Shown here piece after piece: positions 2,824 to 42,277 of a stretch of 64,000 nucleotides of DNA (the first letter of the stretch is position 1; the number at the start of each line of letters is the position of its first letter). The translations under genes were made by a program, and so were the position numbers. Source of the stretch: an uncultured Gammaproteobacteria bacterium (lineage in GTDB: Bacteria; Patescibacteriota; Patescibacteriia; Magasanikbacterales; UBA922); assembly GCA_964550845.1 (NCBI GenBank), contig CAZKAD010000001.1:21342-85341 (forward strand), given 5' to 3'. The notes below the pieces were generated by a model, which made no database searches, was not told where the DNA came from, and saw only the letters and a program-made list of their open reading frames with translations.

Positions 2824-5781
2824 ATGTCACAGCTCACAACAGGAACTGCGTATATTTTTTCATGGTTTGCGGAAGATGACGGAATGATCCATGCATTCGG
2901 AATGACTCCAGAAAACGAAACTGTTCACTTAATTATTCTCAACTTTACTCGATATTGTTATATTGAATTACCTCCCGAAATTGACTGGGACAATCCAATT
3001 CATCAACGAAGTTTCCAAGAAGCTGTTGGATCAATGAATCAAGAAATTTATCCTCAACAAATGGTCTTTATGAAAAAGCATCGATTGTATCGAGCTCATA
3101 TGGTCAAAACCGATCAAGGTTATCAACGATGTTTATTCCCTTATCTTTTTGTTTGTTTCAAAACGCAAAAGGCAATGATTGATTTCACTCGTCGAGTTAG
3201 TTGGGGAATCTATATTGAATCAATTGGAAGAAAAATTAATTTACGTTCGCATGAACAAGACGCAAGTCCTTTTTTGCAACTCGCAGTTTGTCGCAACATC
3301 CCAATTACCGGTTGGATTGACTTCACTGGAGTGAAGCAATCCGATGACTGGAATAGCTCTTATTGTAAACATGAATATGTACTCAATTGGAATACACTGT
3401 CTGCTTCGAAAGACCAAAAATTGCTCAAGACTTTGCCCAAAGTTAAAATCGTTTCTTTTGATTGGGAGGCAAACTCAACCAATCATAATCGAATGCCAAA
3501 TGAAAAGAAGCCCGGAGATGTCTTGTTTCAATGTTCGATGAGTGTGTTTGAACATGGATCGGATAAAATCGAAAATCATCTTTTGACTCTTGGTTATCCT
3601 GATCCAGCGAAAGTAAGTGAAGGAAGAACCGATCCAGTCAAAATTCATCACTACGCAACTGAAGCTGACATTTTGGAAGGATTTGCCAAAATGATCATTG
3701 AGCTCGATCCACAAGTGATTACCGGATACAATATCATGGGCTGGGATTTCAATTATATGATTGCCCGCGCTAAACTAAACAATGTCTATCAATCATTTTC
3801 CCAATTTGGATACATCAAAGGAATGTCTGCGAAAGAAAAGAACATTACCTGGTCAAGCTCCGCATTTAGCAAACAAAGTTTTTCTTATCCTGCAATTGCC
3901 GGACGAATTATTATTGACATGCTTCCTGTGATTAAAAGAGGGTTTAAGTTTGCCAGTTACACGTTGAGTAATGTTTCAGTTGAAATCCTCGGGCCGAATC
4001 AAACCAAGGATCCTCTCACTCCACAAGGCATTTTCAAATGCTTTCAAATTGGATCACCTGAGACACTATCGATAGTAGGCAAGTATTGTGTGAGAGATTC
4101 CGAAGTCACTTCGTTTCTGTTCCAAAAACTCAAGACTTGGGTTGACAGCTGTCAAATGTCAAGTATTATGGGTGTTCCGATCTTTGATCTTTCGACACAA
4201 GGACAACAAGTTAAGATTTACGCTCAAATTTATCGAGATTGTTTTCTTAAGAATACGGTCGTTGAAAAGAATGGCTATGTCTGTGAAAAAGACGAGAGTT
4301 ATACCGGTGCAATCGTGTTGACACCTATTCCAGGTCTTCATGAAAATGTGGTTACGTTTGATTTCGCCAGTCTGTATCCATCAGTAATTGTGGAAAAGAA
4401 TATTTGTTATTCGACTTGGGTGATTGATCCAAATATTCCAGATGAAGATTGTCACGTACTTGAATGGGAGGATCATATTAATTGTCCTCATGATACCGAA
4501 AAAAGATCCGACAAAAAGAAAGTGATGTGTGCGAAACGTAAATATCGATTTCTTAAGACTCCGCAAGGAATTTTGCCAAATATTCTCACGCGATTGACTG
4601 CTGAAAGAAAGAAAGTGAAGAAAGAGCTCGAGGGGGTTGAAGAAAAGGAGAAGGAAGAAAAAGATCCTATGTTGAAGAAAGATTTGAAGATGTATGCAAC
4701 CATTCTTGACATGACTCAAATTGCAATTAAAACTGTATCCAATAGTATGTATGGTGTGATGGGTGTTACCGAAGGCCGACTGCCTTTTATGCCAGGTGCA
4801 ATGTCGACTACCGCTGGTGGTCGAGCTGCAATTATGAAAGCGAAGAAAATCATCCTTGATCGTCATCCTGGCAAAGTTATTTATGGTGATACCGATTCGT
4901 TGATGTATATCTTCGATGATATGAAGCGTTTCGAAGATGAAAAGGGGAAGATCGATTACAAAGCTCTTGAAAAGTTCTGCAACAAAGTGTCAGAGGAAAT
5001 CTCTTGTCACTTTGCAAAACCGATGAAACTCGAATTTGAAAACATTGCGGAACAATTCTTTATTTTAACCAAGAAAAGATACATTTCAAAACTCAGTAAT
5101 GGAAAAGTTAAAAAGCGAGGTATCATGTTAACTCGACGAGATAACGCCGCTTGCTCGAGAAAAGCTTATGAAGGATTGCTTAATCTTATCTTTCAAAAGG
5201 CACCCCTGGATAAAATTTTTGACTATATTGTTGAAGCTCTCAATCAAATCTATAGCCATTATTACCCAAGCAAAGATTATGCAATCACAAAGAGTATCAA
5301 AGACATCGATACTTACAAAGTCAAAGCTCTTTCAACCGAACTAGTCGCTCGTCAACGACAATTGAAGAATAAGTTTCTTCCTTATGTTGAACCAAACAAT
5401 CCACAGGCCTCGAAGATCGAAGATGAATACAAATTTCGATCTTTGCCAGCCCATGTTCAGTTGGCTGAAACAATGAGATCAAGAGGGTCAATTGTTGAGT
5501 CTGGAAGTCGATTTGCTTATGTAGTGACTACTAAAGGTGGTCCTTCGGGAAAAATGTGGCAAAAGATCGAAAGTCTTGAATATTATTCTCGTCATCAGGG
5601 AATGATCAATTTAGATAGCAATTACTATGGCAAGGCCCTGATTAATCCGTTTGATGAAGTACTTCAAATCATGTTCCAACGACAAAATTTTACTAAACAA
5701 CAACACAAAATTCGTCTGCAAAAATATGAGATGCTCCAAGAGCTGAAGAGATTGATGGCTCCTCAACTTATTGCTGAATAA
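2824..5781 (+). CDS. polB: DNA polymerase, family B
   Basis: Exo I SFDWE, motif A FDFASLYPS, motif B KTVSNSMYG, motif C YGDTDS. 985 aa, uninterrupted. Confidence 0.97.
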   Translation: MSQLTTGTAYIFSWFAEDDGMIHAFGMTPENETVHLIILNFTRYCYIELPPEIDWDNPIHQRSFQEAVGSMNQEIYPQQMVFMKKHRLYRAHMVKTDQGYQRCLFPYLFVCFKTQKAMIDFTRRVSWGIYIESIGRKINLRSHEQDASPFLQLAVCRNIPITGWIDFTGVKQSDDWNSSYCKHEYVLNWNTLSASKDQKLLKTLPKVKIVSFDWEANSTNHNRMPNEKKPGDVLFQCSMSVFEHGSDKIENHLLTLGYPDPAKVSEGRTDPVKIHHYATEADILEGFAKMIIELDPQVITGYNIMGWDFNYMIARAKLNNVYQSFSQFGYIKGMSAKEKNITWSSSAFSKQSFSYPAIAGRIIIDMLPVIKRGFKFASYTLSNVSVEILGPNQTKDPLTPQGIFKCFQIGSPETLSIVGKYCVRDSEVTSFLFQKLKTWVDSCQMSSIMGVPIFDLSTQGQQVKIYAQIYRDCFLKNTVVEKNGYVCEKDESYTGAIVLTPIPGLHENVVTFDFASLYPSVIVEKNICYSTWVIDPNIPDEDCHVLEWEDHINCPHDTEKRSDKKKVMCAKRKYRFLKTPQGILPNILTRLTAERKKVKKELEGVEEKEKEEKDPMLKKDLKMYATILDMTQIAIKTVSNSMYGVMGVTEGRLPFMPGAMSTTAGGRAAIMKAKKIILDRHPGKVIYGDTDSLMYIFDDMKRFEDEKGKIDYKALEKFCNKVSEEISCHFAKPMKLEFENIAEQFFILTKKRYISKLSNGKVKKRGIMLTRRDNAACSRKAYEGLLNLIFQKAPLDKIFDYIVEALNQIYSHYYPSKDYAITKSIKDIDTYKVKALSTELVARQRQLKNKFLPYVEPNNPQASKIEDEYKFRSLPAHVQLAETMRSRGSIVESGSRFAYVVTTKGGPSGKMWQKIESLEYYSRHQGMINLDSNYYGKALINPFDEVLQIMFQRQNFTKQQHKIRLQKYEMLQELKRLMAPQLIAE

Positions 5782-5809
5782 TTTTCTTTTCGAAGAAAGT
5801 TTAACTTTT

Positions 5810-5834
5810 TTCTTTTTCTCGTTCAGAAAAAGAA
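5810..5834 (+). terminator. polypyrimidine/polypurine hairpin ending on the next start codon
   Basis: ttctttttct-cgttc-agaaaaagaa. The last A is the A of ATG 5834. Confidence 0.5.
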
Positions 5835-7060: not shown

Positions 7061-7089
7061 TAATCTAGCAAAAAATTCAACTTTTTCTT

Positions 7090-7113
7090 TTTCTTTTCTT
7101 TCCAGAAAAGAAA
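7090..7113 (+). terminator. polypyrimidine/polypurine hairpin 2 nt before the next start codon
   Basis: tttcttttct-ttcc-agaaaagaaa. Confidence 0.5.
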
Positions 7114-7115
7114 TC

Positions 7116-8768
7116 ATGGCGAATGTAAGTATTTACGATCTTTCTTTCAAAGGAAAGGAAAAACAGACCGGATGGTTTGGAGGAGAAACAATCGCAGAAA
7201 TTGACTCTGGACTCCAAATTACAAGCAAACAAGTCCTTCCGAATGAACAAATCTACAAGGCAGTGAAAAAAGTTCCTTCTGATAAGACTCTTCCAGATGA
7301 CTTTGTTGTCCAAGTTTTTTTTACCTTTGATGAACAAAGCTTTATTCGAAACAAGAATGCTGTCCGAATGATGAAGAAAATCAGTGACAATATGGCACCA
7401 AACGGATTTTATTCAATGCCCTCGTTACCTTTTGTCTATTCTTTCTATCCAAATGATCGTCAAGTGAATCAAAGGACCAATACTACCTACGCAATCATGA
7501 AACCTATCCCAATGTGGAGGCATATTCTCGACACTTCAACGCGAAAATTCCACTGGTTTATGTTCAATGCGCTTTCCACTTTGTTCTATCTTCACAAGCT
7601 CGGAATCATTCACCGAAATATCTCTCCCGACAGTGTCTACTTTGTAACTGACTCGAATGATAATCCTTCGATTTTTATTCATAATTTTGCTTCTGCTTGC
7701 TGGATGAATGATCAAACCGATTTAACCCAGATTGTGAAGTGTAATGAAACTGCTCCACTCCTCGACTACATCGATCCAGTCCTTCTTCCGAAGAGTCGAG
7801 TTCAACTTCAAAAGCTGCAACAACAAGCAGCGAGTAATTTGAGTGAGGCAAGAAAAAAGGAACTTATTGGTCAAATTGACCAGGCTCAGGCAGAATTCAA
7901 TAAGAAAAAGAATGATTTCAATGCGGCTGGAAAAGGAAATCAGATCCAGAATGACCCCAGTATGAAAGTGTTAAGGGAAAAAATTGGTAGATTGAGGGGA
8001 GAACTTGGCGGAGCTCCTCCGCGAGATGTACGTGATAATCAGGCGACTTATGCTCCATTCACTGACAAGTCTGATGTCTACGCAATGGGAATGTTATTTT
8101 ACCAAATTGTGACACAAGGAATTGGTTATGAAAACCAAAATCGTGATCCTTGGGATGAAGCTCTCGCTTCAAATATTGATTTTCCTCAAAATCAAGACAA
8201 GATTTATGCCTCAAGAAAATTGAGATTATCGCGATCAAATCTTGATGCCAGACTCCAAAATTTAATTCTCAAGATGATTCACCCAAATCCAGCACAACGC
8301 TGTGATGCTGAAGAGGGTCTTTTACAATTGATTGTTTCCGCGCCTGGTGCAATTGAGGAAAAAGTTGCCCAATTTAGAATCTCAAATATGGAAGGAGAGC
8401 CACAACGAGCAATTATGAGATTTCTTGGATCTCAATCTCATCCAGAAATTCCCAATTCGAACGAAGGTACGTTGGCTAAAAGAATGCAATTAAAATGGTC
8501 AGACATCGATCAACAAATTCAAAACAGTGAAGAGGCTGCGAATAAGTATGGTTCGATTCGAGAGCGAAAATTTAGTCCTGAACAACAAGGATCTTCATGG
8601 GGACAAGGTTTTTATAAGGCCGGTTTGGCTGCTGCACCTCTCGCAGTACCAGCCGCCGTAGCTGTATTTAATCCATTTGCTGCAGGTGCAATGGTTGCCG
8701 GAGCGGGTTTAATCAAAGTTCACGATCGGTTTCAACAGAAATTGTCACAACGATGGAGAAAAGGATAA
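7116..8768 (+). CDS. protein kinase-like protein, probable pseudokinase with hydrophobic C-terminal tail
   Basis: Kinase subdomains LGIIHRNISPDSVYF, IHNFASA, SDVYAMGMLFYQIV, HPNPAQR. HRD and DFG aspartates are both Asn. Gly/Ala-rich tail GLAAAPLAVPAAVAVFNPFAAGAMVAGAGLI. Start at ATG 7116. Confidence 0.75.
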   Translation: MANVSIYDLSFKGKEKQTGWFGGETIAEIDSGLQITSKQVLPNEQIYKAVKKVPSDKTLPDDFVVQVFFTFDEQSFIRNKNAVRMMKKISDNMAPNGFYSMPSLPFVYSFYPNDRQVNQRTNTTYAIMKPIPMWRHILDTSTRKFHWFMFNALSTLFYLHKLGIIHRNISPDSVYFVTDSNDNPSIFIHNFASACWMNDQTDLTQIVKCNETAPLLDYIDPVLLPKSRVQLQKLQQQAASNLSEARKKELIGQIDQAQAEFNKKKNDFNAAGKGNQIQNDPSMKVLREKIGRLRGELGGAPPRDVRDNQATYAPFTDKSDVYAMGMLFYQIVTQGIGYENQNRDPWDEALASNIDFPQNQDKIYASRKLRLSRSNLDARLQNLILKMIHPNPAQRCDAEEGLLQLIVSAPGAIEEKVAQFRISNMEGEPQRAIMRFLGSQSHPEIPNSNEGTLAKRMQLKWSDIDQQIQNSEEAANKYGSIRERKFSPEQQGSSWGQGFYKAGLAAAPLAVPAAVAVFNPFAAGAMVAGAGLIKVHDRFQQKLSQRWRKG

Positions 8769-8770
8769 TG

Positions 8771-8845
8771 TTCCGAAAGACTCTTTGAAGTGGTTAAACG
8801 TCCGAAGAACTCTTTGAAGTGGTTAAACGTCCCATAGACCAATTA
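8771..8845 (+). repeat. TTAAAC-hairpin repeat array (29-bp unit, 2 copies plus partial)
   Basis: tccgaaRRactctttgaagtggttaaacg twice. Confidence 0.85.
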
Positions 8846-8880
8846 AAAGAAAAGTCATCTTTTTAAACGAAAACTAAGTG

Positions 8881-9219
8881 ATGGCCGAGAACGTTGATTT
8901 TACTGAGATTAACAAACATATTGTTGCAATCACATCTCTTCGAAATCAATTGTCAAAATCGGAGAAAATTGATGAGATTACCAAGATCCGTAATCAAATC
9001 CTTGAGATCGAGGTCAAAATTTTGACCGAACGAGAAAAAGGCTTGAAGAATCTTCAAGTTCGAAAGGAACAGTTACTCCAGAAGACTGCACAGCTTCAAA
9101 TCGAACTCGATAATTCAAAGACTGAACTCGACTCATTAAATCTTCAAATTACTGCTCAAACTGACCGATATCGAAACTCGATCATGAAGCGTATGTTTGA
9201 CCTTGAAAATGACAAGTAA
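8881..9219 (+). CDS. coiled-coil protein (112 aa)
   Basis: Heptad-rich, charged sequence. First ATG at 8881. Confidence 0.5.
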   Translation: MAENVDFTEINKHIVAITSLRNQLSKSEKIDEITKIRNQILEIEVKILTEREKGLKNLQVRKEQLLQKTAQLQIELDNSKTELDSLNLQITAQTDRYRNSIMKRMFDLENDK

Positions 9220-9236
9220 AAATTGTGAATGGACGA

Positions 9237-9244
9237 AAAATTGA
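9237..9244 (+). promoter_or_regulatory. AAAATTGA promoter-like octamer
   Basis: 32 nt upstream of the RNR R2 ATG 9276. Confidence 0.65.
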
Positions 9245-9275
9245 GTTCCATTTTTCTTCCTCTCAAAAAGAAACC

Positions 9276-10253
9276 ATGCAACTCCTCGCCGAACCAAAAA
9301 ATAAGTTTGATCTTTTTACCATTAAGTACCCAAAGATTGAAGAGTTTGGTAACAAACAACTTTCAATGATGTGGCTTCCAGGGGAAATTTCATATGATAA
9401 AGATCGTCAGCACTTCGAGGAGTTGAAGGATGAAAGAATTCGTCATATTTTGAAGCGCATTATTGGTTTTTTCTTTACCAGTGATGGAATTGTATTCGCC
9501 AATCTTGATGAAAATTTCACAGAGGAGTTCAAGGCTCCAGAAATGAAATATCTTTTTGCAGCGATTTCAGCAATTGAAAGTATTCATGCAAAGTCGTACG
9601 GATTTCAACTCGATTCTCTAATTACAAATGTTGAAGAGAAACAAGAAATTATGGATGCAATTGTAAATATTCCATCGATTCGGAAGATGGCTGAATTTGC
9701 TATTAAATACATGGACCAGAGTCATCCTCTGGTTAATCGAATGGTTGCTTTTCTTTGTATTGAAGGCATTTTCTTTTCATCGCCATTTGCATTTATCTTT
9801 TGGATTCGAAAGTATATGCCGAAGAAATTCCCTGGAATCGTGGCAGCCAACGATTTTATTTCGAGAGATGAGAATCTCCACTGTGAAGCAAATGCTTACG
9901 TAATTAATCTCTTTGCTGAAGAAGGACAACTTGATTTCAAAAATGCTGAAAAAGTATTCAGAGAAGCGACACAAATTGCAATTGAGTTTGCCGAGGATAC
10001 TTTCCCGAATGATCTTCTCGGAATGACCGCAGCAATGATGATTACTCATATTAAATTTGTTGCCAATCGGTGGGCTCAAATTATCGGTTTGAAACGTCTG
10101 TATGATGAGGCTCAAAAAACTCCTTTTACTTTTATGGATAACATTGCTTTGACCAAGAAAGACAATATGTTTGAATCTCAAACTCTAACTGATTATCAAG
10201 GTGCACCAAATATGGAAGTTCACTTTGATTATTCATCAGCAGAGAACTTCTAA
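9276..10253 (+). CDS. ribonucleotide reductase small subunit (R2)
   Basis: ESIHAKSY (E-x2-H-x3-Y radical site), EGIFFSSPFA, ISRDENLHCE, C-terminal ...ENF. First ATG at 9276, 32 nt after AAAATTGA. Confidence 0.93.
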   Translation: MQLLAEPKNKFDLFTIKYPKIEEFGNKQLSMMWLPGEISYDKDRQHFEELKDERIRHILKRIIGFFFTSDGIVFANLDENFTEEFKAPEMKYLFAAISAIESIHAKSYGFQLDSLITNVEEKQEIMDAIVNIPSIRKMAEFAIKYMDQSHPLVNRMVAFLCIEGIFFSSPFAFIFWIRKYMPKKFPGIVAANDFISRDENLHCEANAYVINLFAEEGQLDFKNAEKVFREATQIAIEFAEDTFPNDLLGMTAAMMITHIKFVANRWAQIIGLKRLYDEAQKTPFTFMDNIALTKKDNMFESQTLTDYQGAPNMEVHFDYSSAENF

Positions 10254-10317
10254 GATTCGTGAATAAGAAATTACAATCTTTTCGAAAAAAAATAAAATCT
10301 TCCTCATACAAAATCTC

Positions 10318-10518
10318 ATGCATACCCCGATCGCTCTCGTTCTCGCTGTTGCTGCTGCAATCTCGTTGGTGATCAATCTCTATTATGTTGAGAAGGATCC
10401 CGCCAAAGCTAGAAAAGCTTTGATTGCTGCCGTAGTTTTGCTCGCCGTCTTGGCTCTTGTGTTGGTTCACAAGAAGTTCGGTAAGATGATGATGGGTCCT
10501 AGCTATGACATTATGTAA
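10318..10518 (+). CDS. small two-helix membrane protein (66 aa)
   Basis: Two hydrophobic helices, IALVLAVAAAISLVINLYYV and ALIAAVVLLAVLALVLV. Confidence 0.45.
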   Translation: MHTPIALVLAVAAAISLVINLYYVEKDPAKARKALIAAVVLLAVLALVLVHKKFGKMMMGPSYDIM

Positions 10519-10555
10519 TTAGATATTGAATATTGGATATTGAATATAAATTTCG

Positions 10556-10563
10556 AAAATTGA
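10556..10563 (+). promoter_or_regulatory. AAAATTGA promoter-like octamer
   Basis: 65 nt upstream of ATG 10628. Confidence 0.6.
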
Positions 10564-10627
10564 TTTCTTAATCAATCAATAATCAAACTTATTAGGAGTT
10601 TGATTATCTTTTCAAAAAGTAAAGGTT

Positions 10628-11158
10628 ATGAATGATGCAGCCAATGATATTTGTATTATTTGTCTGTCTCGCAAAGGTATAGCTAAATATTGTACACATT
10701 TCTATTGTGATATTTGTCTGAGAGAAATGTGCACAATTCGTCTTCAACATCATCAAAAATGTGGATGTGCAATTCCAGGTTGTATTGAATACGACCAAAA
10801 ACAAATTGATGCTATTCTTGACAATGAAGGCAAAACTGCACAAATTGAAGCTTATCTTCGACAACATGGACAAAAATGTACAAAGTGTCACGAATGGGTA
10901 ACCAAAGGTGATGGATGTAACTTTGTTAATTGTCGCTGTGGGTTATCATGGGATTGGCGTCATGGACCTCCAGATTTTGTTAATCAGACTTCTCCCTCTT
11001 CTTGGTGTTTTCGATGGTTTCGAGATGATACAAAAATTTTACTCGGGCAATTAAGTACGACTACGCTCAAAATGATTGAGCAAGAACTTACATTGCATAC
11101 ATCGAATAGAAGAGAATATTCAACTCGAAATATTCTTGAACATCTTAAGAAGTTGTAA
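10628..11158 (+). CDS. RING-between-RING (RBR)-type E3 ubiquitin ligase, minimal
   Basis: RING1 CIICLS...CTHFYCDICL, IBR-like CGCAIPGC, RING2-like CTKCHEWVTKGDGCNFVNCRCG. Confidence 0.65.
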   Translation: MNDAANDICIICLSRKGIAKYCTHFYCDICLREMCTIRLQHHQKCGCAIPGCIEYDQKQIDAILDNEGKTAQIEAYLRQHGQKCTKCHEWVTKGDGCNFVNCRCGLSWDWRHGPPDFVNQTSPSSWCFRWFRDDTKILLGQLSTTTLKMIEQELTLHTSNRREYSTRNILEHLKKL

Positions 11159-11160
11159 TT

Positions 11161-11190
11161 CACAAAGTCACCTTCTGAGGTGACTTTGTG
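11161..11190 (+). terminator. gene-end hairpin (12-bp stem)
   Basis: cacaaagtcacc-ttctga-ggtgactttgtg. Confidence 0.6.
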
Positions 11191-11265
11191 AAACTCTTTT
11201 TTGAGAAAAATGAGTTTTTTCTTTATCGAGAAGGGAAAATTTGCTCATCAACTTTTCAATCAGAA

Positions 11266-11715
11266 ATGAATCGAAATTTAGAGGCACTCCATCTAAAACC
11301 AACCTCGGCAGGCGTTCTTCTTGTTGCAAAGCATCACATTTTATTCGTCAAAGAAAAATCTTCAGACAAATGGGGACTTCCAAAAGGAAGTATTCAAAAA
11401 GATGAGTCAAAAGTCGATTGCTGGAAAAGAGAATTGAAAGAAGAAACTCAAATCGACATCGATCTTTATAAATATCGTGTTATCTGGAACAAAAGGATTA
11501 ATAGATACATTATTTACACTGTCATTCTATCAATTGACAATGAGACGTTCAACAAAATGAAAGCTCAAGAGTCGAAAAGCGAGGAGATTAACCAAGTTGA
11601 ATGGATCAAGATTGGTGAAATCCCTACTAACGTATACGATTCATTGAATTCAACGGCGAGGACTGCTATTTTTAGTATAAATCATCCATCATCACGCTCT
11701 TTTCGAAGAGAATGA
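11266..11715 (+). CDS. Nudix hydrolase
   Basis: Nudix box GLPKGSIQKDESKVDCWKRELKEETQI. Start at ATG 11266, because the 11188 GTG lies inside hairpin 11161..11190. Confidence 0.85.
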   Translation: MNRNLEALHLKPTSAGVLLVAKHHILFVKEKSSDKWGLPKGSIQKDESKVDCWKRELKEETQIDIDLYKYRVIWNKRINRYIIYTVILSIDNETFNKMKAQESKSEEINQVEWIKIGEIPTNVYDSLNSTARTAIFSINHPSSRSFRRE

Positions 11716-11731
11716 ATCTATCAATTTGAAG

Positions 11732-11739
11732 AAAATTGA
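11732..11739 (+). promoter_or_regulatory. AAAATTGA promoter-like octamer
   Basis: 91 nt upstream of ATG 11830. Confidence 0.55.
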
Positions 11740-11829
11740 TCTGCAAAAATTAACTTAATATAAAAACCTACCCGAAGGGATCTCGTTTTTCGGTTAAAGA
11801 GTTTTTCACTATTTGTACAGAGTTAAAGA

Positions 11830-12678
11830 ATGGTTCCCGCTCCCTTCAAAAGGTACACCATTACTTTTACTGTGGCAACCAACTGGACTATTAATCATGT
11901 TCTTTTCTTCTGGAAACATGACTTTCCAAAAATACAAGACATGTCAAATGTTCCTCTTGGTACAATTCTTTCATTGAAATACAAAGATGAAAATGGCCAT
12001 GTTCATCATCGAGGTCATGGAAAGAGCAATGATAAATGTTTTTCTAATACTACTTCTGTGAATGTTTTTGTTGGAAAAGTTATCAATGTTAAACTTCCAT
12101 CATTCGGTAAGATTCAAATTACCGGATGTCTCGAGGAGAGTCAAGCATATAAGGGAGTTCATGCAATTTGGAAAGCAATTCAAGCAATCGAAGAAAAGAA
12201 TCCTGGTTTTTGTAAATTACCTCCAGATGAACCACCAAAAATTATTTTCAATCCCGTGATGAACAATGTGAGTGTAAATATTGGTTTTGAAGTGAATCGA
12301 CAAAAGTTACAGACATTCTTGTATAGATGCAAAGAAATGGATTTCATTCTTCCGACCAAAGATGAGAGATATGCAGGAACAAAAGTAGAGACAAAAATTC
12401 AAGACATTTCTCATATTCCGCTGGTTAAACAAAGATTTCTCCAAGGAAAATGGTATTCTTCAAATGCGACCATGAATGACTTTCTAGCTCTCTTGAATGC
12501 AAAAAGTCGAAAAGAAGAGAGTCGAAAGACTCATCAACATGTCATTCTTATTTTTCATTCAGGTAAATTGATTTATATTGCTCCTCGATTTGAACTAATG
12601 CCGAAATTCTATGACTTTTTCCTCAAGCTCCTTCATGAGCATCGAAATGAAATTGAAGAAACTTGTCAAGCGCATTAA
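11830..12678 (+). CDS. hypothetical protein, possible TATA-box-binding-protein-like fold
   Basis: Two TBP-repeat-like segments, SFGKIQITGCLEESQAYKGV and LIFHSGKLIYIAPR. Fold assignment is weak. Confidence 0.6.
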   Translation: MVPAPFKRYTITFTVATNWTINHVLFFWKHDFPKIQDMSNVPLGTILSLKYKDENGHVHHRGHGKSNDKCFSNTTSVNVFVGKVINVKLPSFGKIQITGCLEESQAYKGVHAIWKAIQAIEEKNPGFCKLPPDEPPKIIFNPVMNNVSVNIGFEVNRQKLQTFLYRCKEMDFILPTKDERYAGTKVETKIQDISHIPLVKQRFLQGKWYSSNATMNDFLALLNAKSRKEESRKTHQHVILIFHSGKLIYIAPRFELMPKFYDFFLKLLHEHRNEIEETCQAH

Positions 12679-12754: not shown

Positions 12755-12850
12755 TTAAACGTCTCTTCAAGACTGGTTAAACGTCTCTTCAAGACTGGTT
12801 AAACGTCTCTTCAAGACTGGTTAAACGTCTCTTCAAGACTGGTTAAACAT
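12755..12850 (+). repeat. TTAAAC-hairpin repeat array (22-bp unit, 4.4 copies)
   Basis: ttaaacgtctcttcaagactgg with TTAAAC at 12755, 12777, 12799, 12821, 12843. Three more TTAAAC at 12675..12700. Confidence 0.95.
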
Positions 12851-16274: not shown

Positions 16275-18800
16275 TCAAAATTCATTTTGAATTGGTATCA
16301 CAATCACGGGATCTTTGATTGCAGCCATCTTTAGAATCCGAAGTTGAGACTCAAGATCCTTAATCTTCTTTTCATAATCAAGTTGACGTCGTTTGAAATC
16401 ACTGGTTGTTTCTTGGAGTTTAAGTTGATTATTTTTCAAACCGTCTTCAAGTGTCTTAACATGTTGTTTCTTTCCTTCAAGTTGAGACTTCAGTTCTTCT
16501 TCGACAATCGATAATTTTGAATACTTTTCATGGAGTTGAAGGAGTTCTTCTTTTGTCTTTGTATCTTCCTCGGTTGGTTTCCACGTTTTACTCATATTCT
16601 CACGAAGAGTATTGTTTTCATCACACAAGTTAGCCACTTTACCTCGAAGTCCAATATTTTCTTCTTCTAAAGTTTGAGTTCGAACATTTGCAAATTTAAT
16701 TGCTTGTTCGGCAGTCTCATCTTTCTCTTTTAGCAATAAATCGACTTTACTCAATTGTCCTTCGAGTTGAGCAATTTTATCGAGATAATTTGTTTGATTC
16801 GCTCGAAGAGATTCAATTTCGATTATCTTTTGATTCAAATCATCCTGGCAATGTCGAAGATCATCTCGTGAACGATCCGCAACAGATCGAATATTTTCAA
16901 TTTCATTTTTCACTAATGAAATACTTTTCTGAAGTTCAGTGACTAACGCAGTTTTACTGTCAAGTTCTTCAGCCATCTTTTGGAATTGATCAAGTGATTC
17001 TTCATAATTAGCTGGCGTGAGAGTCGGTTGAACAATCAAATTGTATTCTTTCTTAAAGTCTTTCACATCGATACCTTTCTTTTCACAAAGTTCAATTAGC
17101 TTATTAAGATCTTTAGTCAAAGCTGAAATAATGATTTGTTGAGTAGCAAGTTTTTCATTCGCTTCAAAGAGAAGACGTTTGTATTCTTCAACATTCATTT
17201 CAAGATTAACCACCGGTTTGTTCAAAATGGTTTGAGTAATAGCACCAAATCTCAGCGTTGAAAGAGTTTCTTCATAATTGAATTTCGCAGGTGAACAAGT
17301 AATTACCAAATGAGTTTTACTGTTTCCACCGAGGGAATCGGTCAAAAGACGAGTCAATTTTGAATCTCGATATGGAATGAAACTCTTTTTTTCAGCCAAA
17401 CTTCGAATCACCAATCCAAGAGTCAATAATGATTTGTTAGTTGAACTGGCTTGCTTCAACAGCAATCCTTCAGCCTTTGTTTTCGCTACCTTTTCAGATC
17501 CGGCCAAATCGACAAACACTATTCGCGAGATAATTTTCTTTCCAGTCTTCAGTTCATTTTGTTGAAGATGCATCACCAGTACTGAATGACTTCTCGACGA
17601 ATGAGCGTTCATCGCCGTTTCAGCAACTGTTCGATTCAATTCTCCCTTTCTCATTACACGGACAGCATCTTCAAAACAATTGACATAAGTTTCAGTCACA
17701 TCTTCAATCCATAATCCTCGGAAACGATCCTCACGAATCTTTAGGTCATCGCGAAGAGGTGAGAGCAGATCTCGAATTCGCTCGAGATAAATTTCAACAT
17801 ATGACATGCTAACCAAAAATTCATATCCTTTTTTCCCACGAATCGCGGTAAATAAATCTTTGATTAACCGTGGAACTACACCCATCTCAGTTTCGGTTTT
17901 CCAGAGTTCTCCCTCCTGAGACAGAGCATCGGGATTGTCTACCGATGCAGCGTATCCAGTCATTGTAGTAGTTTTTCCTGAATTATGTGTAATAGTTCCA
18001 TCGGCAAGCAAAAATCGTTCAGGACGATCTTTAATCGGTTCAAGTTGAAATCCTGAATACAACCCCATTCCAACATCTTCAATTTCGAATGAATAAGTTT
18101 CAAGGCCCTTCGAGGCCGGTTCAAGGCCCTTCGGGGTTGGTCCAATTTTCTTATCCTCTTTTCCGATCATTCGAACTCCAAGATAATCTTGTTTATTCTT
18201 TTGTTTCAATAGTTCCTTGACTGACATATCAATCAGCTTTGACTCAAATTGGAGTGTCAAAACGTGATCAAGATTCACCGTGTAAAAACTTTTCTTTTTC
18301 ACATCTCGAATTTTAAACATATGTGAAATTCCAGTAAACAACTTGATCACTTCTCGAACATTTCCTTTTTCGTCAACAAGTTTGTCACCGACTTGAACAT
18401 CTCGTGCTTGAATAATAGATCCATCGATCAGTAAGATTAGTGTCTCAGGAGAAAGGCATCCAGACTGACCATAAGCAAAGATAGTTGCATTGTATCCTTG
18501 AAGAATCTCATCAAGTAAAGGTTTACCAACAGCTTGATATACTTGTTCTTGAGTTGCTTTTTCTTCAAACACTTTGTCGTAATAATATCGATTATCTTTT
18601 ACCTCTTGTGGAAGATTAACAACGTTCCCATTCACCACAATCATTCGATTACCTCCATTTTTTAATTCCGTTTCATTACAAGGGCGAAATCGACAAAAAA
18701 CTTTAACATTTCGATCATCTCTTGGCTCTGTCTCATCCGATTTTTTAGACTCTGGTTTAGACTCTCGGGGAGAAAATGGTTTTGATTTTGCTTTCATCAA
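16275..18800 (-). CDS. kinesin motor protein (N-terminal motor, C-terminal coiled coil) interrupted by a mini-intein
   Basis: Switch I SSRSHSV, switch II DLAGSEK, NKSLLTLG, IPYRDSKLTRLL. P-loop split GQSG/SGKTTTM. Long heptad-rich tail. Confidence 0.93.
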   Translation of the reverse strand: MMKAKSKPFSPRESKPESKKSDETEPRDDRNVKVFCRFRPCNETELKNGGNRMIVVNGNVVNLPQEVKDNRYYYDKVFEEKATQEQVYQAVGKPLLDEILQGYNATIFAYGQSGCLSPETLILLIDGSIIQARDVQVGDKLVDEKGNVREVIKLFTGISHMFKIRDVKKKSFYTVNLDHVLTLQFESKLIDMSVKELLKQKNKQDYLGVRMIGKEDKKIGPTPKGLEPASKGLETYSFEIEDVGMGLYSGFQLEPIKDRPERFLLADGTITHNSGKTTTMTGYAASVDNPDALSQEGELWKTETEMGVVPRLIKDLFTAIRGKKGYEFLVSMSYVEIYLERIRDLLSPLRDDLKIREDRFRGLWIEDVTETYVNCFEDAVRVMRKGELNRTVAETAMNAHSSRSHSVLVMHLQQNELKTGKKIISRIVFVDLAGSEKVAKTKAEGLLLKQASSTNKSLLTLGLVIRSLAEKKSFIPYRDSKLTRLLTDSLGGNSKTHLVITCSPAKFNYEETLSTLRFGAITQTILNKPVVNLEMNVEEYKRLLFEANEKLATQQIIISALTKDLNKLIELCEKKGIDVKDFKKEYNLIVQPTLTPANYEESLDQFQKMAEELDSKTALVTELQKSISLVKNEIENIRSVADRSRDDLRHCQDDLNQKIIEIESLRANQTNYLDKIAQLEGQLSKVDLLLKEKDETAEQAIKFANVRTQTLEEENIGLRGKVANLCDENNTLRENMSKTWKPTEEDTKTKEELLQLHEKYSKLSIVEEELKSQLEGKKQHVKTLEDGLKNNQLKLQETTSDFKRRQLDYEKKIKDLESQLRILKMAAIKDPVIVIPIQNEF
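17982..18458 (-). other. mini-intein (159 aa, Hint domain, no endonuclease) inside the kinesin P-loop
   Basis: Begins CLSPETLILLIDGS (block A), has internal TVNLDHVLTL (block B-like), ends FLLADGTITHN followed by +1 Ser. Excision restores GQSGSGKT. Confidence 0.85.
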
Positions 18801-18855
18801 AAGCGATTTCTTTTCTTTTCTTTTCTTTCAGTGGAAAAAAGCTTTCTTTTTCTTG

Positions 18856-18863
18856 AAAATTGA
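18856..18863 (+). promoter_or_regulatory. AAAATTGA promoter-like octamer
   Basis: 86 nt upstream of the ATG8 start, with the TTAAAC array in between. Confidence 0.6.
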
Positions 18864-18880
18864 TAATTTTTCCAGATAAA

Positions 18881-18947
18881 TTAAACATCCTAAAGAACCG
18901 GTTAAACATTCGAAAGACCGGTTAAACATTCGAAAGGAAAATTAAAC
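18881..18947 (+). repeat. TTAAAC-hairpin repeat array (20-21 bp unit, about 3 copies)
   Basis: ttaaacattcgaaagaccgg. Lies between AAAATTGA (18856) and the ATG8 start codon. Confidence 0.9.
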
Positions 18948-18948
18948 A

Positions 18949-19383
18949 ATGAGTTGGGCCGATATGTTTCGTAAAGGGGGTCGATTTTCCGAGGCTCTTC
19001 AAAAGCTCGAACAAAAAAGTCTTGAACAAAGACGAGTCGAAATCAAAAAAATTACCTTTCGATCTCCAGATTCTACTCCAGTAATCGTGATTCCTGAAAA
19101 TGGAATTCGGTTAGACAAAATGAAATATGTTTGTCCATCTGATGTTGACGTTGGACGATTGAATTACATTGTGACAAAGAAAATTCAATCAGCAACTCCA
19201 AATACCGAAAGGGCCTACTTCTTCTTTACTGAAGGAAAGCAAATTCCTCCGACAAGTCAATTGATCAAGGATCTATGCGCAAAAAATAAAAATGAAGATT
19301 TTTCTCTCCATCTTTATTTAACAGCTGAAGAAACGTTTGGATTTTCTTTTCCCATCCAAAATGAACATCCAGAAAGTCTTTGA
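18949..19383 (+). CDS. ATG8: ATG8/LC3/GABARAP-family ubiquitin-like protein
   Basis: Aligns by eye along GABARAP: PDSTPVIVIP, LDKMKYVCPSDVDVG, AYFFFTEGKQIPPTS, EDFSLHLYLTAEETFG followed by a 13-aa tail. Confidence 0.85.
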   Translation: MSWADMFRKGGRFSEALQKLEQKSLEQRRVEIKKITFRSPDSTPVIVIPENGIRLDKMKYVCPSDVDVGRLNYIVTKKIQSATPNTERAYFFFTEGKQIPPTSQLIKDLCAKNKNEDFSLHLYLTAEETFGFSFPIQNEHPESL

Positions 19384-20113
19384 TGATTTCCGTCAAAAGC
19401 CCGGCCGATATCAAAAATTTCTGACTAAATTTGGTCGCGATTTGAAGGGTATTCAAATTGAGACCCTTGAACAATTTCGAAATGTAATTGATCAAATTCA
19501 AGTCAAAGATGATGGTAAAGACGATGGTATTGTTGCTCGAGGTAATGCAAGAGCTCGAGAAATTGATGAAGCGAGTCGAAGAAAAAAATTCCATGATCAT
19601 CTTTATTTTGATTTTGGGTGCTCTGATGGTAAATTGACCCTTGAGATTGCCAAACAGCTTAAGATTCCAACTGAAAATGTATATGGTGCTGATATGGCGT
19701 CGTTTACTGGAGTTAGAATTAACCCTGTGCTCCGTAAACAAAATTTTGAACTAATTGAAAAAGAGGGACAAAAATTGCCCTACAACGATCAAACTTTTGG
19801 TCTCGTGACATGTTTTCAAGTTTTGCATCATCTTCAATTTCCAGAATTGGCAATTGCCGAATTTCATCGAATCCTTCGAAAAGATGGAATGTTGATTATC
19901 CGTGAACATGATGCAAGAGAAGAGGATAAAAGATTGATTGATTTTGAACACTTGATTTATCCTCATGAAAACATCGAACAAACTTATATTGGCAATTATC
20001 ATCAAGCTTCTGAATGGGATCGAATGATGCTTAAACATGGATTTGTTGCATTTGGATTTACGATGACCAAAGGAGAAACTTTTTACTACACTCAATCTTA
20101 CTTGAAGATGTAA
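19361..20113 (+). CDS. class I SAM-dependent methyltransferase
   Basis: Motif I YFDFGCSDG, FGLVTCFQVLHHL, LRKDGMLIIRE. Start uncertain (19337 or 19361) and overlaps the ATG8 3' end. Confidence 0.72.
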   Translation: MNIQKVFDDFRQKPGRYQKFLTKFGRDLKGIQIETLEQFRNVIDQIQVKDDGKDDGIVARGNARAREIDEASRRKKFHDHLYFDFGCSDGKLTLEIAKQLKIPTENVYGADMASFTGVRINPVLRKQNFELIEKEGQKLPYNDQTFGLVTCFQVLHHLQFPELAIAEFHRILRKDGMLIIREHDAREEDKRLIDFEHLIYPHENIEQTYIGNYHQASEWDRMMLKHGFVAFGFTMTKGETFYYTQSYLKM

Positions 20114-29415: not shown

Positions 29416-29446
29416 TTCTTTTCCTTTGTTCAGAAAAAGAAAAAGA

Positions 29447-29454
29447 AAAATTGA
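29447..29454 (+). promoter_or_regulatory. AAAATTGA promoter-like octamer
   Basis: 33 nt upstream of the FEN1 ATG. Confidence 0.65.
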
Positions 29455-34415: not shown

Positions 34416-34525
34416 ACGTCTCTTCGAGACTAGTTAAACATCGAGACGATTGGTTAAACGTTCCGGAGGAACTGATTAAACGTTCCGGAGGAACTGATTA
34501 AACATTCCGGAGGAACTGATTAAAA
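34412..34525 (+). repeat. TTAAAC-hairpin repeat array (22-bp unit, 5 copies)
   Basis: TTAAAC at 34412, 34434, 34454, 34476, 34498. Units ttaaacgttccggaggaactga. Confidence 0.95.
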
Positions 34526-36660: not shown

Positions 36661-37644
36661 ATGACATATCGAAAAGCAATCATTTATCGACGTGTGTCGA
36701 CTGCAGCCCAGCTTAATGGAAATGCATTGTTGACACAACAATTGCAATGTGAAGAATGGATTCAAGCTAGATATCCCGAATTAGAAATCAAAACTCGAAC
36801 TGACGTCGGAAGTGGCTGGAATAAAAATAAACGAGAGCCATATCAATTGCTTGAGAAAATGCAGAATATAGTTGATTCATGCACGAAGACATTGATTGTC
36901 ATTTATTGTATCGATCGATTCCTTCGAGATGTTAAAACGGCAGAAGAAATCTTACCTAAACTCAAGGAGAATAAAAATCGAATCGTGTTTTTGCTTGAAA
37001 ATCTTGACTATCACAATTTTTCTGGCAAGGATGTCTACTTGAAAATTATTAGGGGAGTCGAATCTGCTCAAACAGAATCAGATGTTAAATCCAAACGCAT
37101 GAAAGATGCCTGGAAAACAAAATGTATGCTGGAAAACAGCCCTGAACTTGAAGATGAGGAATGGAAACTTGAATATGATTCAGAATCTGAATCTGATGAT
37201 GAAAACAAAAGTGCTTTGAATCGAAGGAAAATTGAACCTGTAAAAGTTCAAGAAACTAAACTCGTTCAAGCTCCTGCTTATCGTTTGGCTAATCGACCTC
37301 AAGCGTCGATTCAACCTCCTCAAGCGTCGATTCAACCTCCTCAAGCGTCGATTTATCAATGGCCTCCCCAATTATTGATTGACAATCACTTCGACGATCC
37401 TCTCTTTTCAAAGAAAGAGAAAATTAAAAGGTTAATTCAGACTTGTTCAGAAGGACGTTATACTATCAAATCATTGAATCAACATCTTCTTCAACTTTCT
37501 TCAGTCGCCTTTTCTCTTCAAGTCGAAGAAGTTCCAACCTCGTGGGATGGAATGGCAACTTTACTAAATCTTTTTGAGATCTGCTGGGTGCCAGAAATTC
37601 CGAAAGGAGAATGGACTGCCGAGAAAGCAAAGGCTTTTAATTAA
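36661..37644 (+). CDS. serine recombinase (resolvase/invertase catalytic domain)
   Basis: AIIYRRVSTAAQ (nucleophile Ser), IYCIDRFLRD. Internal 3x PQASIQP repeat. Confidence 0.75.
   Translation: MTYRKAIIYRRVSTAAQLNGNALLTQQLQCEEWIQARYPELEIKTRTDVGSGWNKNKREPYQLLEKMQNIVDSCTKTLIVIYCIDRFLRDVKTAEEILPKLKENKNRIVFLLENLDYHNFSGKDVYLKIIRGVESAQTESDVKSKRMKDAWKTKCMLENSPELEDEEWKLEYDSESESDDENKSALNRRKIEPVKVQETKLVQAPAYRLANRPQASIQPPQASIQPPQASIYQWPPQLLIDNHFDDPLFSKKEKIKRLIQTCSEGRYTIKSLNQHLLQLSSVAFSLQVEEVPTSWDGMATLLNLFEICWVPEIPKGEWTAEKAKAFN
37297..37356 (+). repeat. 21-bp coding tandem repeat, about 2.8 copies (PQASIQP)
   Basis: cctcaagcgtcgattcaacct at 37297, 37318, 37339. Confidence 0.9.
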
Positions 37645-39319: not shown

Positions 39320-39982
39320 ATGAATATCGATTTGTTTGACAAATTTCCTTTATCATGTCTAAAATTTAGCGGATCAATTCGGGCCCGTTATGAAAACTTT
39401 GATCAATTTGTTCAGCTTTGTTCCATTATTGCTGAGAAAAAACAGTATCACACTATACATTTCAATCAAGAAGATGCCCGAAAAACTAATTTTACTGATA
39501 TTTCAATTCAATATCATTCGATAAAGAGGATTAATGAAGTTTGTTATTCATCTGAGATGAACGTATTAAAAATAAAGAAAACAATTTTAGGCATTCGATA
39601 CATCAACATCGATAATCTTGATGTACTGCAAAAATTACTTCAGTCACCTACGTTGTATCCTGGAGCTACATTGGACATTGATATTGATTTAGATTATGAA
39701 TCAAGCAACGAAACGAAAAATATAAGCACTAAAAATGAATTGGCTGTATTGGACATGATGATTCAGTCAGAATCACCATTGAGGAATCTTGATATTAAAT
39801 ATTATGTTGGCAATCTTGGTGGAATGAGAGAATTGAATATCAGTAGCTTACTCCGATTGATGCAGTTTGTTTGCTGCGGGTTGAATCTACGTGATTATTC
39901 TACATGGTCTTCCTTTCTAACTCGAGAATTATATGATCCGAGAATACTTAGTTTAATTGCGAAATTTGCATTTTGCATGTAA
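39320..39982 (+). CDS. LYDPR-box family protein, type II
   Basis: ESPLRNL...LMQFVCCGLN...WSSFLTRELYDPRILSLIAKFAF. Confidence 0.8.
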   Translation: MNIDLFDKFPLSCLKFSGSIRARYENFDQFVQLCSIIAEKKQYHTIHFNQEDARKTNFTDISIQYHSIKRINEVCYSSEMNVLKIKKTILGIRYINIDNLDVLQKLLQSPTLYPGATLDIDIDLDYESSNETKNISTKNELAVLDMMIQSESPLRNLDIKYYVGNLGGMRELNISSLLRLMQFVCCGLNLRDYSTWSSFLTRELYDPRILSLIAKFAFCM

Positions 39983-39988
39983 AATTGA
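39981..39988 (+). promoter_or_regulatory. AAAATTGA promoter-like octamer
   Basis: 43 nt upstream of ATG 40031. Confidence 0.65.
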
Positions 39989-40030
39989 TTTCTCTTCGAG
40001 ATAAAAACAATTTATATTATAATTATAGTA

Positions 40031-40693
40031 ATGTTTTCAAACTTACATGAAATAAAATCAGAATTAGTTGGTACAATTAAAACTATTTCTCGATCAGGTG
40101 AAGAGTTTGTCAAACTTTGCGATCAACTTCAACATCTAAATCGTCATACTATTTATTTTTCGACTAATTTTCGATGGTATGCTAATGTTGATGAAAAATT
40201 GGAAGATTTTGAGGACTACGATAGCATTTTTTCTCTTACGATCATTGAATTTGGGACTCAAAATCAATTTGAATTTGAAGCTAAAACTGCCATCTTCAGA
40301 AATAAATGTGTTGAACAAATTCCCCGAATTAACCATATTGATCTCTGGCATGCAGAAGAAATGAATTATCAACTTAATTGCCCTGGTGCAACAGTCGAAC
40401 ATCATTATCGTTCGGGACATAAGAAGGAGATTCATAAAAATTATTTCATACTGCTTCATGATCTCCTCAAATCAGAATCGATGTTGCGCAATTTGAACAA
40501 TGTGGTAACCACGAAAAATGCCATTCGAATCACAGAACTTCTCTCTTTAATGAAAATCATTTGTCTTGGGCTTGTAGATGAGAGCGATTTGAATTCTTTT
40601 TTAACTCGAGAATTGTATGATCCTCGATTGTTAATTACGATTGCCGAATTTACAGATCAACATTCGATTTTAATCAGCGTCAGCCCTTTTTGA
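40031..40693 (+). CDS. LYDPR-box family protein, type II
   Basis: ESMLRNL...LMKIICLGL...NSFLTRELYDPRLLITIAEF. Confidence 0.8.
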   Translation: MFSNLHEIKSELVGTIKTISRSGEEFVKLCDQLQHLNRHTIYFSTNFRWYANVDEKLEDFEDYDSIFSLTIIEFGTQNQFEFEAKTAIFRNKCVEQIPRINHIDLWHAEEMNYQLNCPGATVEHHYRSGHKKEIHKNYFILLHDLLKSESMLRNLNNVVTTKNAIRITELLSLMKIICLGLVDESDLNSFLTRELYDPRLLITIAEFTDQHSILISVSPF

Positions 40694-40710
40694 TGTTTAA
40701 AAACAAAAAT

Positions 40711-40737
40711 GATTTCTCTCTTCTCGAAGAGAGGAAA
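40711..40737 (+). repeat. family-associated intergenic palindrome GATTTCTCTCTTCTCGAAGAGAGGAAA
   Basis: Near-identical copies at about 41457..41485, 42244..42273 and 42901..42929, each just upstream of a type II start codon. Confidence 0.85.
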
Positions 40738-40749
40738 AATAACAATCTC

Positions 40750-41460: not shown

Positions 41461-41500
41461 TTTCTCTCTTCTCGAAGAGAGGAAAATTATTATTTCAGTT

Positions 41501-42187: not shown

Positions 42188-42245
42188 TCAGAGCAATAGA
42201 AGTAATCGGAGTAATCGGAGTAATCGGAGTAATCAGAGTAAAACT
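42183..42245 (+). repeat. 9-bp tandem repeat, 7 copies (AGTAATCRG)
   Basis: Starts at the stop codon of gene 41501..42187. Confidence 0.85.
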
Positions 42246-42277
42246 GATTTTCTCTCTTCTCGAAGAGAGGAAAAGTA

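Follow-up and report, generated by a model that had tools for sequence, protein, structure and literature searches.

The divergent kinesin/ATG8 gene pair at positions 16275-19383 of a stretch of 64,000 nucleotides (nt) (GenBank assembly GCA_964550845.1, contig CAZKAD010000001.1, positions 21,342 to 85,341 of the forward strand) was analysed; the whole stretch is hereafter called the window, and positions are counted from its first letter. The source of the window is an uncultivated nucleocytoplasmic large DNA virus with the Mimiviridae-type early promoter AAAATTGA. The initial annotation of this DNA had called a kinesin gene on the minus strand and an ATG8 gene on the plus strand, arranged head-to-head, and both identities were confirmed by the open reading frames (ORFs) and Pfam (Table 1). 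What it missed is an intein in the P-loop of the kinesin; this mini-intein is the most concrete new fact in the interval. The kinesin start had been placed at 18800, and the TTG-read ORF (16275..18800, minus strand) does exist; the ATG at 18797 is almost certainly the true start, since all gene calls on related contigs give an 840-amino-acid (aa) product beginning MKAKSK.... The divergent adjacency itself recurs in 7 of the 11 sampled lineages of a viral kinesin clade, with differing flanks.

The kinesin consists of an N-terminal motor followed by a stalk/tail of about 300 aa, with the C-terminus ...PVIVIPIQNEF. The Pfam Kinesin profile was matched in two stretches, one on each side of the intein. 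Switch I (SSRSH) and switch II (DLAGSE) are intact in the ORF, and the P-loop GQSGSGKT becomes contiguous only once the intein is removed. The spliced motor is 59-66% identical to the motors of a clade of metagenomic viral kinesins (JGI label, 'kinesin family protein 5'). In an AlphaFold2 (AF2) model made with a 56-sequence alignment, the predicted local distance difference test score (pLDDT) of the motor was above 90; the best PDB match of the modelled motor was the kinesin-1 motor 8rhb_K (TMt 0.94), and the top Foldseek matches were kinesin-1 motors. A C-terminal I-x-x-P-[ILV]-[KRQ] motif occurs in five aligned clade members (NIFAPLKY, NIINPLKY, KIVVPVRK; VIVIPIQ in the window), and the kinesins P0033 and P0031 are without I-x-x-P-[ILV]. 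This C-terminal motif may resemble the IAK autoinhibitory motif of kinesin-1 (QIAKPIRP in KIF5). The ratio of nonsynonymous to synonymous substitutions (dN/dS) against the strain L003 was 0.03 in the motor part and 0.026 in the tail, and that of ATG8 between strains was 0.09-0.11; these values indicate purifying selection on both genes. Viral kinesins are already known in Nucleocytoviricota (Imitervirales metagenome-assembled genomes (MAGs); mininucleoviruses) (PMC10583209; 10.1101/2021.03.14.435220). As in those viruses, the window kinesin is a motor gene of eukaryotic origin, here kinesin-1 (KIF5)-like with an N-terminal motor and then a stalk; it differs in having a P-loop intein and in coming from a clade in which pairing with ATG8 is habitual.

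The P-loop is split by a predicted class-1 mini-intein with all canonical splice-junction residues. It starts with Cys1 (CLSPETL...), has the block-B His in ...VNLDHVLTL, which fits the pattern VNxxHxLTL of the matched relatives, and ends with ...DGTITHN, followed by Ser+1 (SGKTTTM). Aligned with the intein-free kinesins P0020, P0029, P0031 and P0033, the window kinesin shows 159 additional aa, cleanly inserted between AYGQSG and SGKTTTM; the 18 closest kinesins are without the insert as judged by length, which was confirmed by alignment for four of them. By eye, the 159 aa show no LAGLIDADG motif, and the intein is without a homing-endonuclease domain, for which this length leaves no room. 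Where it would sit (about 18100-18170, minus strand; aa about 206-234), there is a low-complexity PKGLEPA/SKGLET linker, the copy number of which varies among strains (P0016, P0013, L003; kinesins of 840, 847 and 833 aa). In the AF2 model, the intein segment is mostly beta strand (pLDDT 50-80) and the linker (206-234) is disordered. The hits of L006-L009 in tblastn (95% over 120 aa) were considered as possible intein-free copies; they are most simply explained by alignment run-on into the intein and were not taken as absence.

The best PDB matches of the intein were the PI-SceI and Prp8 inteins. An exhaustive phmmer search across 1.84 billion representatives returned 2414 relatives (best, 1.4e-21), the top matches being in giant-virus topoisomerase II, RNA polymerase, packaging ATPase and helicases. 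Kinesins made up 12 of the 150 best matches; nine of them (intein lengths, 138-384 aa) were confirmed by pattern match at GQTG^SGKT, where ^ marks the insertion site. The kinesin P0047 has another mini-intein at the identical P-loop site, and the 1321-aa kinesin L097 (IMG/VR GVMAG-M-3300017963-43, 8432-12397) has a full-length intein with two LAGLIDADG blocks at the same site. In total, this P-loop site is occupied by mini or full-length inteins in at least 11 kinesins besides that of the window. Between strains, the intein has a dN/dS of 0.07 (dS 0.24-0.78), so it seems to be maintained rather than decaying, and this value lends indirect support to the predicted splicing. From the known role of the P-loop, a precursor with its Walker-A loop interrupted by the insert could not be an active ATPase.

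An intein has been reported in a kinesin of Anaeramoeba, cytoskeletal proteins having previously been unreported as intein hosts (Gallot-Lavallee et al. 2023, PMC10710043), and this was the only case found in the literature on kinesin inteins. The window intein likewise lies inside a kinesin; it differs in that its host gene is viral and that it is a mini-intein. P-loop (Walker-A) homing inteins and intein clusters common to eukaryotes and Nucleocytoviricota have also been described (PMC10710043); what sets the window copy apart is that its nearest phmmer relatives lie in the giant-virus proteins listed above. The family of viral kinesin P-loop inteins appears to be undescribed.

Conservation of the pair was evaluated at two depths. 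In the species-level group (L001-L009; ATG8 identity, 91-100%), the local gene order is wholly kept. The wider sample was the viral kinesin clade defined above by its motor (11 lineages including that of the window). In the window, L012/L013, L099, L100, L180, L181 and L182, ATG8 is the immediate upstream neighbour of the kinesin and lies on the other strand, so that the synteny check proposed in the initial annotation has a positive outcome. The flanking genes vary from locus to locus, and only a 157-aa protein and a NUDIX protein loosely recur near the pair. Judged from these loci, head-to-head ATG8/kinesin adjacency is a conserved trait of the clade. No ATG8 was found beside the more distant intein-bearing kinesins L016 and L097. 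An alignment-based scan of IMG/VR gave 329 viral ATG8 loci, and at the 80 best other viral ATG8 loci no kinesin was found in flanks of up to about 10 kb. For the kinesin clade, an IMG/VR scan gave just two distant loci, and in the metagenome scan with generic kinesin motifs, L099 and L100 were the only useful loci. Viral kinesins and viral ATG8s are each known; the conserved pairing of the two appears to be undescribed. In a neighbour-joining tree of the motors, drawn without support values, the window lineage is basal in the clade and the pair-bearing lineages are scattered through it, which suggests an ancestral pair with at least two losses or moves. The kinesin-linked ATG8s are highly divergent (28-37% identity to the window copy). 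They were grouped in a neighbour-joining tree of BLOSUM distances and not in the bootstrap analysis with Kimura distances, in which the ATG8s of the window and L099 came together in 309 of 500 replicates; a single origin of the linked ATG8s is thus not claimed.

The ATG8 gene encodes a protein with the ubiquitin-like core at aa 27-131. The best solved relatives are GABARAPL2/GATE-16 (6e-16); altogether, 106 PDB sequences of the ATG8 family were matched at E<=1e-4, and the protein is 39% identical to GABARAP and 32% identical to yeast Atg8. A word-index homology search with this protein returned only itself, and a single-protein scan of IMG/VR returned nothing. The single-sequence AF2 model was unusable (pLDDT 38), and the following comparisons were made from alignments. 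Three stretches of the window protein are additional relative to known ATG8s: 12 aa inserted in the N-terminal part, 3 aa inserted in a loop, and a 13-aa tail after the conjugation glycine. The LC3-interacting region (LIR) docking positions were read against GABARAP K46, K48, Y49, L50, P52, R28, R67 and F104; K57, K59, Y60, V61, P63 and K78 of the window protein are kept or conservative. Among the pair lineages, the 13-aa tail is restricted to that of the window: in five of the six others ATG8 ends exactly at the Gly, and in L180 it has a 2-aa tail. The start of the downstream methyltransferase gene lies inside the sequence for the tail (19361-19383; 23-nt overlap, different frame), so the tail sequence would be doubly constrained. 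Viral ATG8 is also known, as the Atg8 of PelV-1 and among viral eukaryotic signature proteins (PMC12338748; 10.1101/2023.07.11.548585). The window copy agrees with these homologues, which are common in giant-virus MAGs, in the ATG8-family fold and the C-terminal Gly, and differs from them in its insertions and tail and in its linkage to a kinesin, which is unlike the 80 other viral loci mentioned above.

The spacer between the two start codons is 151 bp in the window, 128-130 bp in the sister strains and 22-39 bp in the six other pair lineages. In at least three of the compact lineages the whole spacer forms an inverted repeat, perfect or nearly so, with both start codons inside it (L180, 16 nt, perfect, 719-756; L182, 10 nt, 3554-3577; L099, 9 nt, 3690-3720). 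Such compact mirrored spacers look like a shared bidirectional promoter in these relatives, and in compact spacers the upstream region of each gene runs into the partner gene. The window spacer is different. It holds one AAAATTGA on the plus strand at the position, 18856, that had been assigned to it. The octamer lies at -72/-73 from the ATG8 ATG in the strains without the extra repeat unit (see below). AAAATTGA is the early promoter of Mimivirus and Cafeteria roenbergensis virus (CroV) (PMC5294985), and in the window the identical octamer is, as in those viruses, oriented and placed upstream of genes: a sense copy was found within 120 nt upstream of 23 of the 62 genes (about 37%), those for the family-B DNA polymerase (PolB), RPB1 and the capping enzyme included, at -17 to -108 and mostly at -34 to -76, versus five antisense copies. 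As a genome feature the octamer thus exceeds chance and acts as a genuine, oriented promoter motif. The copy in the spacer differs from that arrangement in serving the ATG8 side only; no sense octamer was found within 160 nt upstream of the kinesin. The initial annotation had assumed one control region shared by both genes and had named different temporal expression classes as what would speak against its proposal. For the window genome, a single shared region does not agree with the orientation of the octamer, and because the octamer faces ATG8 only, the two genes appear, by sequence motif alone, to fall into different promoter classes. A pyrimidine tract directly upstream of the kinesin ATG is kept in all strains (Table 1). 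In L012, AAAATTGA is used for other genes, as it is in L014, and was not found upstream of the pair.

The spacer also contains a TTAAAC repeat array, which had been described as a three-copy hairpin array that would lie in the 5' untranslated region (UTR) of ATG8 if transcription starts past the octamer. The repeat is real: it consists of two exact 20-nt copies of ACCGGTTAAACATTCGAAAG and one copy at 70% identity. The hairpin part of the description is weakly supported, the folding z-score being -2.57 for the array alone and -0.40 in the context 18864-18960. Its only appreciable stem is of 7 bp and pairs the palindromic ACCGGT of two neighbouring copies, while the unit's own stem is degenerate (TTC/GAA). 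The location in the 5' UTR would be consistent by analogy with invertebrate iridescent virus 6 (IIV-6), in which the AAAATTGA-type motif lies at -19..-2 of the transcription start (PMC5294985); the start would then be about 11 nt past the octamer. As a conserved regulatory element, the array does not hold up. One of its units is a 21-nt tandem duplication private to the window, L001 and L002; L004-L009 are one unit shorter, and the L003 sequence shows drift. The core motif was matched 21 times (0.7 expected), in a dispersed family of tandem units of 20-29 nt (mostly 21-22, one of 29), each with TTAAAC and a stem-loop of 4-5 bp; from array to array, the stems show compensatory differences. Of the ten intergenic sites, eight are next to the 3' end of a gene, and the other two are in spacers between two 5' ends. 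The array at 53933-54001 sits upstream, not downstream, of the promoter octamer. The family was not found outside the species group, the related lineages being without such an array. By its sequence, the array in the kinesin/ATG8 spacer is a degenerate member of this genome-wide intergenic repeat family, which may be terminator-associated or may be a proliferating repeat.

Table 1. Features of the kinesin/ATG8 interval and related repeat arrays (positions in the window)
Feature	Position	Strand	Evidence or remark
Kinesin-1-like gene, 840-aa precursor, 681 aa once spliced	16275..18797	-	Pfam Kinesin PF00225, 3.7e-95
C-extein: SGKT, SSRSH, DLAGSE, neck, stalk, C-terminal I-x-x-P-[ILV]	16275..17981	-	Sequence and clade alignment
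Predicted class-1 mini-intein, 159 aa, splitting P-loop GQSG^SGKT	17982..18458	-	Translation; Pfam Hom_end_hint, 1.2e-8
N-extein (aa 1-113), ending ...IFAYGQSG (first half of P-loop)	18459..18797	-	Alignment with intein-free relatives
Divergent intergenic spacer, 151 bp ATG-to-ATG (148 bp counted from TTG)	18798..18948	.	Sequence
TTTCT x4.4 pyrimidine tract, purine on kinesin side	18807..18828	+	Tandem Repeats Finder (TRF)
AAAATTGA early promoter octamer, pointing to ATG8	18856..18863	+	-93 from ATG8 ATG; invariant in 8/8 aligned strains
Three-unit TTAAAC tandem repeat, 20-21-nt period	18876..18936	+	TRF: period 20, 2.7 copies
ATG8-family gene, 144 aa	18949..19383	+	Pfam PF02991, 2.3e-16, profile 1-104/104
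ATG8 conjugation glycine G131	19339-19341	+	Aligns with Gly116 of yeast Atg8 and GABARAP, Gly120 of LC3B
ATG8 post-Gly tail, 13 aa, FSFPIQNEHPESL	19342-19380	+	Sequence
Class-I S-adenosylmethionine (SAM) methyltransferase gene	19361..20113	+	Pfam Methyltransf_11, 2.3e-15
TTAAAC family arrays	8772-8832 and 52111-52151		
TTAAAC family array	12755-12848		Stem GTCT/AGAC
TTAAAC family array	34454-34524		Stem GTTCC/GGAAC
TTAAAC family arrays	53933-54001 and 59511-59577		Stem GTCC/GGAC

A direct link between the two proteins was sought in the kinesin tail, where LIR motifs had been proposed. The LIR core [WFY]xx[LIV] was scanned in the full-length kinesins of 18 clade members, and no core is conserved specifically in the ATG8-neighboured kinesins: KKEYNLI, in a basic context, occurs in the window lineage and two others, and the tail cores EEYKRL and EKYSKL are present whether or not a lineage has the pair. 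The sequence PIQNE is common to both C-termini (kinesin ...VIVIPIQNEF, 16278-16310, minus strand; ATG8 tail ...PIQNEHPESL), with identity at 13 of 15 nt. An inverted repeat around the pair was considered on this basis and rejected, since 24 nt at 75% are no better than chance pairs in 3.3 kb; the likeness is best read as a coincidence. PVIVIP, which is present in both proteins, was also set aside as a coincidence; it belongs to the family beta-1 strand in ATG8 and to the clade C-terminal motif in the kinesin.

In cells, autophagosomes are transported by kinesin-1 through LC3/GABARAP and FYCO1, so both protein families act in one transport route. The cellular link is made through LIR adaptors, whereas neither a viral adaptor nor a conserved LIR was found in the present analysis. 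Among giant viruses, Emiliania huxleyi virus (EhV) needs an autophagy-like process, and its virions contain Atg8 (PMC4233938). Given the gene linkage and the known cell biology, functional coupling of the two proteins is plausible. The reading that we favour, and consider probable by a modest degree, is that of a conserved divergent pair in which an intein-gated kinesin and ATG8 would most likely act in one pathway. The pair would be ancestral to the clade and would have been lost or moved at least twice. In its compact form, both genes would be transcribed from overlapping mirrored promoters and thus be co-expressed; in the window lineage, the spacer has expanded, and ATG8 would have shifted to, or added, early expression, with the kinesin on a different promoter. 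The intein would splice out first, no kinesin active in ATP binding being present before splicing is complete. Host ATG7/ATG3 would conjugate the viral ATG8 to membranes; in most lineages ATG8 would be made already ending at the reactive Gly, and in the window the 13-aa tail would need cleavage of the ATG4 type. The viral kinesin, being plus-end-directed, would then move the ATG8-marked membranes or particles on host microtubules, the contact between kinesin and ATG8 being direct or mediated by a FYCO1-type host adaptor. The view that the pairing has a meaning is strengthened by the compact mirrored spacers and the Gly-terminated ATG8s of the sister lineages.

Several observations weigh against this reading. 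Four lineages of the clade (L010/L011, L014, L015 and L179) have the kinesin without an adjacent ATG8. The motor tree that suggests ancestry is of the neighbour-joining type without support values, and a common origin of the linked ATG8s is unsupported, all four of them having come together in 4 of 500 bootstraps (Kimura distances). Two LIR-docking sites of the window ATG8 show non-conservative change in the alignment (GABARAP R28 to S42 and F104 to S119), and a pair-specific LIR core in the kinesin tails of the 18 clade members was not found. The window kinesin is without the early octamer that ATG8 has, which speaks against co-regulation in the window genome; the promoter classes were assigned from motifs only. 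Finally, the very short spacers alone could explain an unbroken pair. Of the co-regulated trafficking module put forward in the initial annotation, the synteny has proved to be conserved, while shared control in the window and a conserved LIR are unsupported.

The most probable alternative is linkage without shared function, which we consider possible but on the doubtful side. In the ancestral compact form, each promoter would lie within or against the 5' end of the other gene, any breakpoint in such a spacer would kill one or both genes, and the products could be independent, ATG8 manipulating or decoying host autophagy and the kinesin moving virions or factory components. Spacers of 22-39 bp in six lineages agree with such a lock; kinesin tails with no conserved LIR, 80 of 80 sampled other viral ATG8s with no nearby kinesin, same-clade kinesins with no adjacent ATG8, and a window lineage in which the spacer is expanded and the promoters look different are likewise all in keeping with it. 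However, the spacer of 128-151 bp relaxes the lock in the window lineage, and yet the pair is intact in every sampled strain, with dS up to about 0.7; moreover, of the few homologous genes common to these loci, only the adjacency of the pair is strictly kept.

It is quite unlikely that the window ATG8 is a non-conjugatable decoy that soaks up host ATG4/ATG7 or LIR proteins and so blocks xenophagy, the kinesin being irrelevant. The restriction of the 13-aa post-Gly tail to the window lineage (2 aa in L180), the replacement of the R28 and F104 equivalents by Ser and the early-type promoter of ATG8, which would suit early host manipulation, favour this idea, but cellular ATG8s such as LC3B and yeast Atg8 also have post-Gly tails, which are removed by ATG4; the tail may merely be constrained by its overlap with the methyltransferase start, and the relatives ending exactly at the Gly look built for conjugation rather than for inhibition. 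An elaborated form of the one-pathway reading is given a similarly low probability. It is a two-gene cassette of a pre-activated ATG8, which would bypass ATG4, and a kinesin-1-like motor with the mirror image of the same 22-39-bp promoter, which would recognise membranes decorated with the viral ATG8, directly or by way of a host adaptor, and haul them to or from the virus factory, to which cassette the window lineage would have added two gates, splicing and a removable tail, the PIQNE of which would copy the kinesin C-terminus. The least probable is the initial proposal taken literally, that one bidirectional region co-regulates both genes with the array as an ATG8 5'-UTR regulator: the octamer and the array are really present, the IIV-6 analogy would put the transcription start just before the array, and the array alone has some folding potential, but the octamer is orientation-specific genome-wide (23 sense, 5 antisense) and faces away from the kinesin, the copy number of the array differs between strains 96% identical in ATG8 and the array is degenerate in L003, its stem requires two copies, the repeat family lies mostly beside 3' ends and in one case (53933-54001) upstream of a promoter, and the related lineages do without it.

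As for the surroundings of the favoured conserved pair, the methyltransferase gene beside ATG8 keeps its position only inside the species-level group and does not adjoin the pair in other lineages; we treat it as context, membership in the pair not being shown. The window is a giant-virus core region with genes for PolB, a capping-enzyme/methyltransferase fusion, RPB1, the small subunit of ribonucleotide reductase, a NUDIX protein, a FEN1/XPG-like nuclease, several protein kinases and a helicase. The relatives of the window PolB are 76-95% identical within the species/genus group, and all others are at <=54%. PolB of the window (2824-5781, plus strand, 985 aa) is without an intein; the 1465-aa PolB P0290, 95% identical to it over the aligned 59%, has an Intein_splicing domain, which is also found in the more distant PolBs of L010 and L014. 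Judged from these proteins, the PolB intein is a presence/absence polymorphism among close strains. The RPB1 ORF (54051-56987, plus strand) has just 978 aa, the match to Rpb1 domain 5 ending at profile position 64 of 267, and the gene seems to be truncated or split. Eight consecutive ORFs on the plus strand (39320-45189; 190-255 aa each) have near-identical 3' coding ends (...TTGTATGATCCTCGATTG...) and look like a tandem paralogue array. A serine-recombinase gene (36661-37644, plus strand; Resolvase N-terminal domain, 1.4e-14) with AAAATTGA upstream may be the remnant of a mobile element. T/C-rich palindromes, of the type TTTCTTTTC...GAAAAGAAA or CTCTTCTCGAAGAGAG, lie directly 3' of stop codons (for example, at 5790-5833, 7070-7115, 29420-29450, 41470-41500, 42250-42277 and 52060-52110); they are reminiscent of the hairpin 3'-end signals of Mimivirus transcripts.

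Giant viruses carry both cytoskeletal and autophagy genes, and usually nothing ties one such gene to another. Clues to function that come from sequence alone are few, and a pair that stays together over deep divergence, in genomes that otherwise rearrange, is one of them; it poses the question of whether viral ATG8-tagged membranes ride on the viral kinesin. The intein in the P-loop adds viral cases to that of Anaeramoeba, the only kinesin intein reported, and agrees with the view that P-loop-homing inteins are carried by giant viruses from protein to protein and from host to host; the kinesin of the window would be a natural kinesin strictly dependent on protein splicing for its activity.

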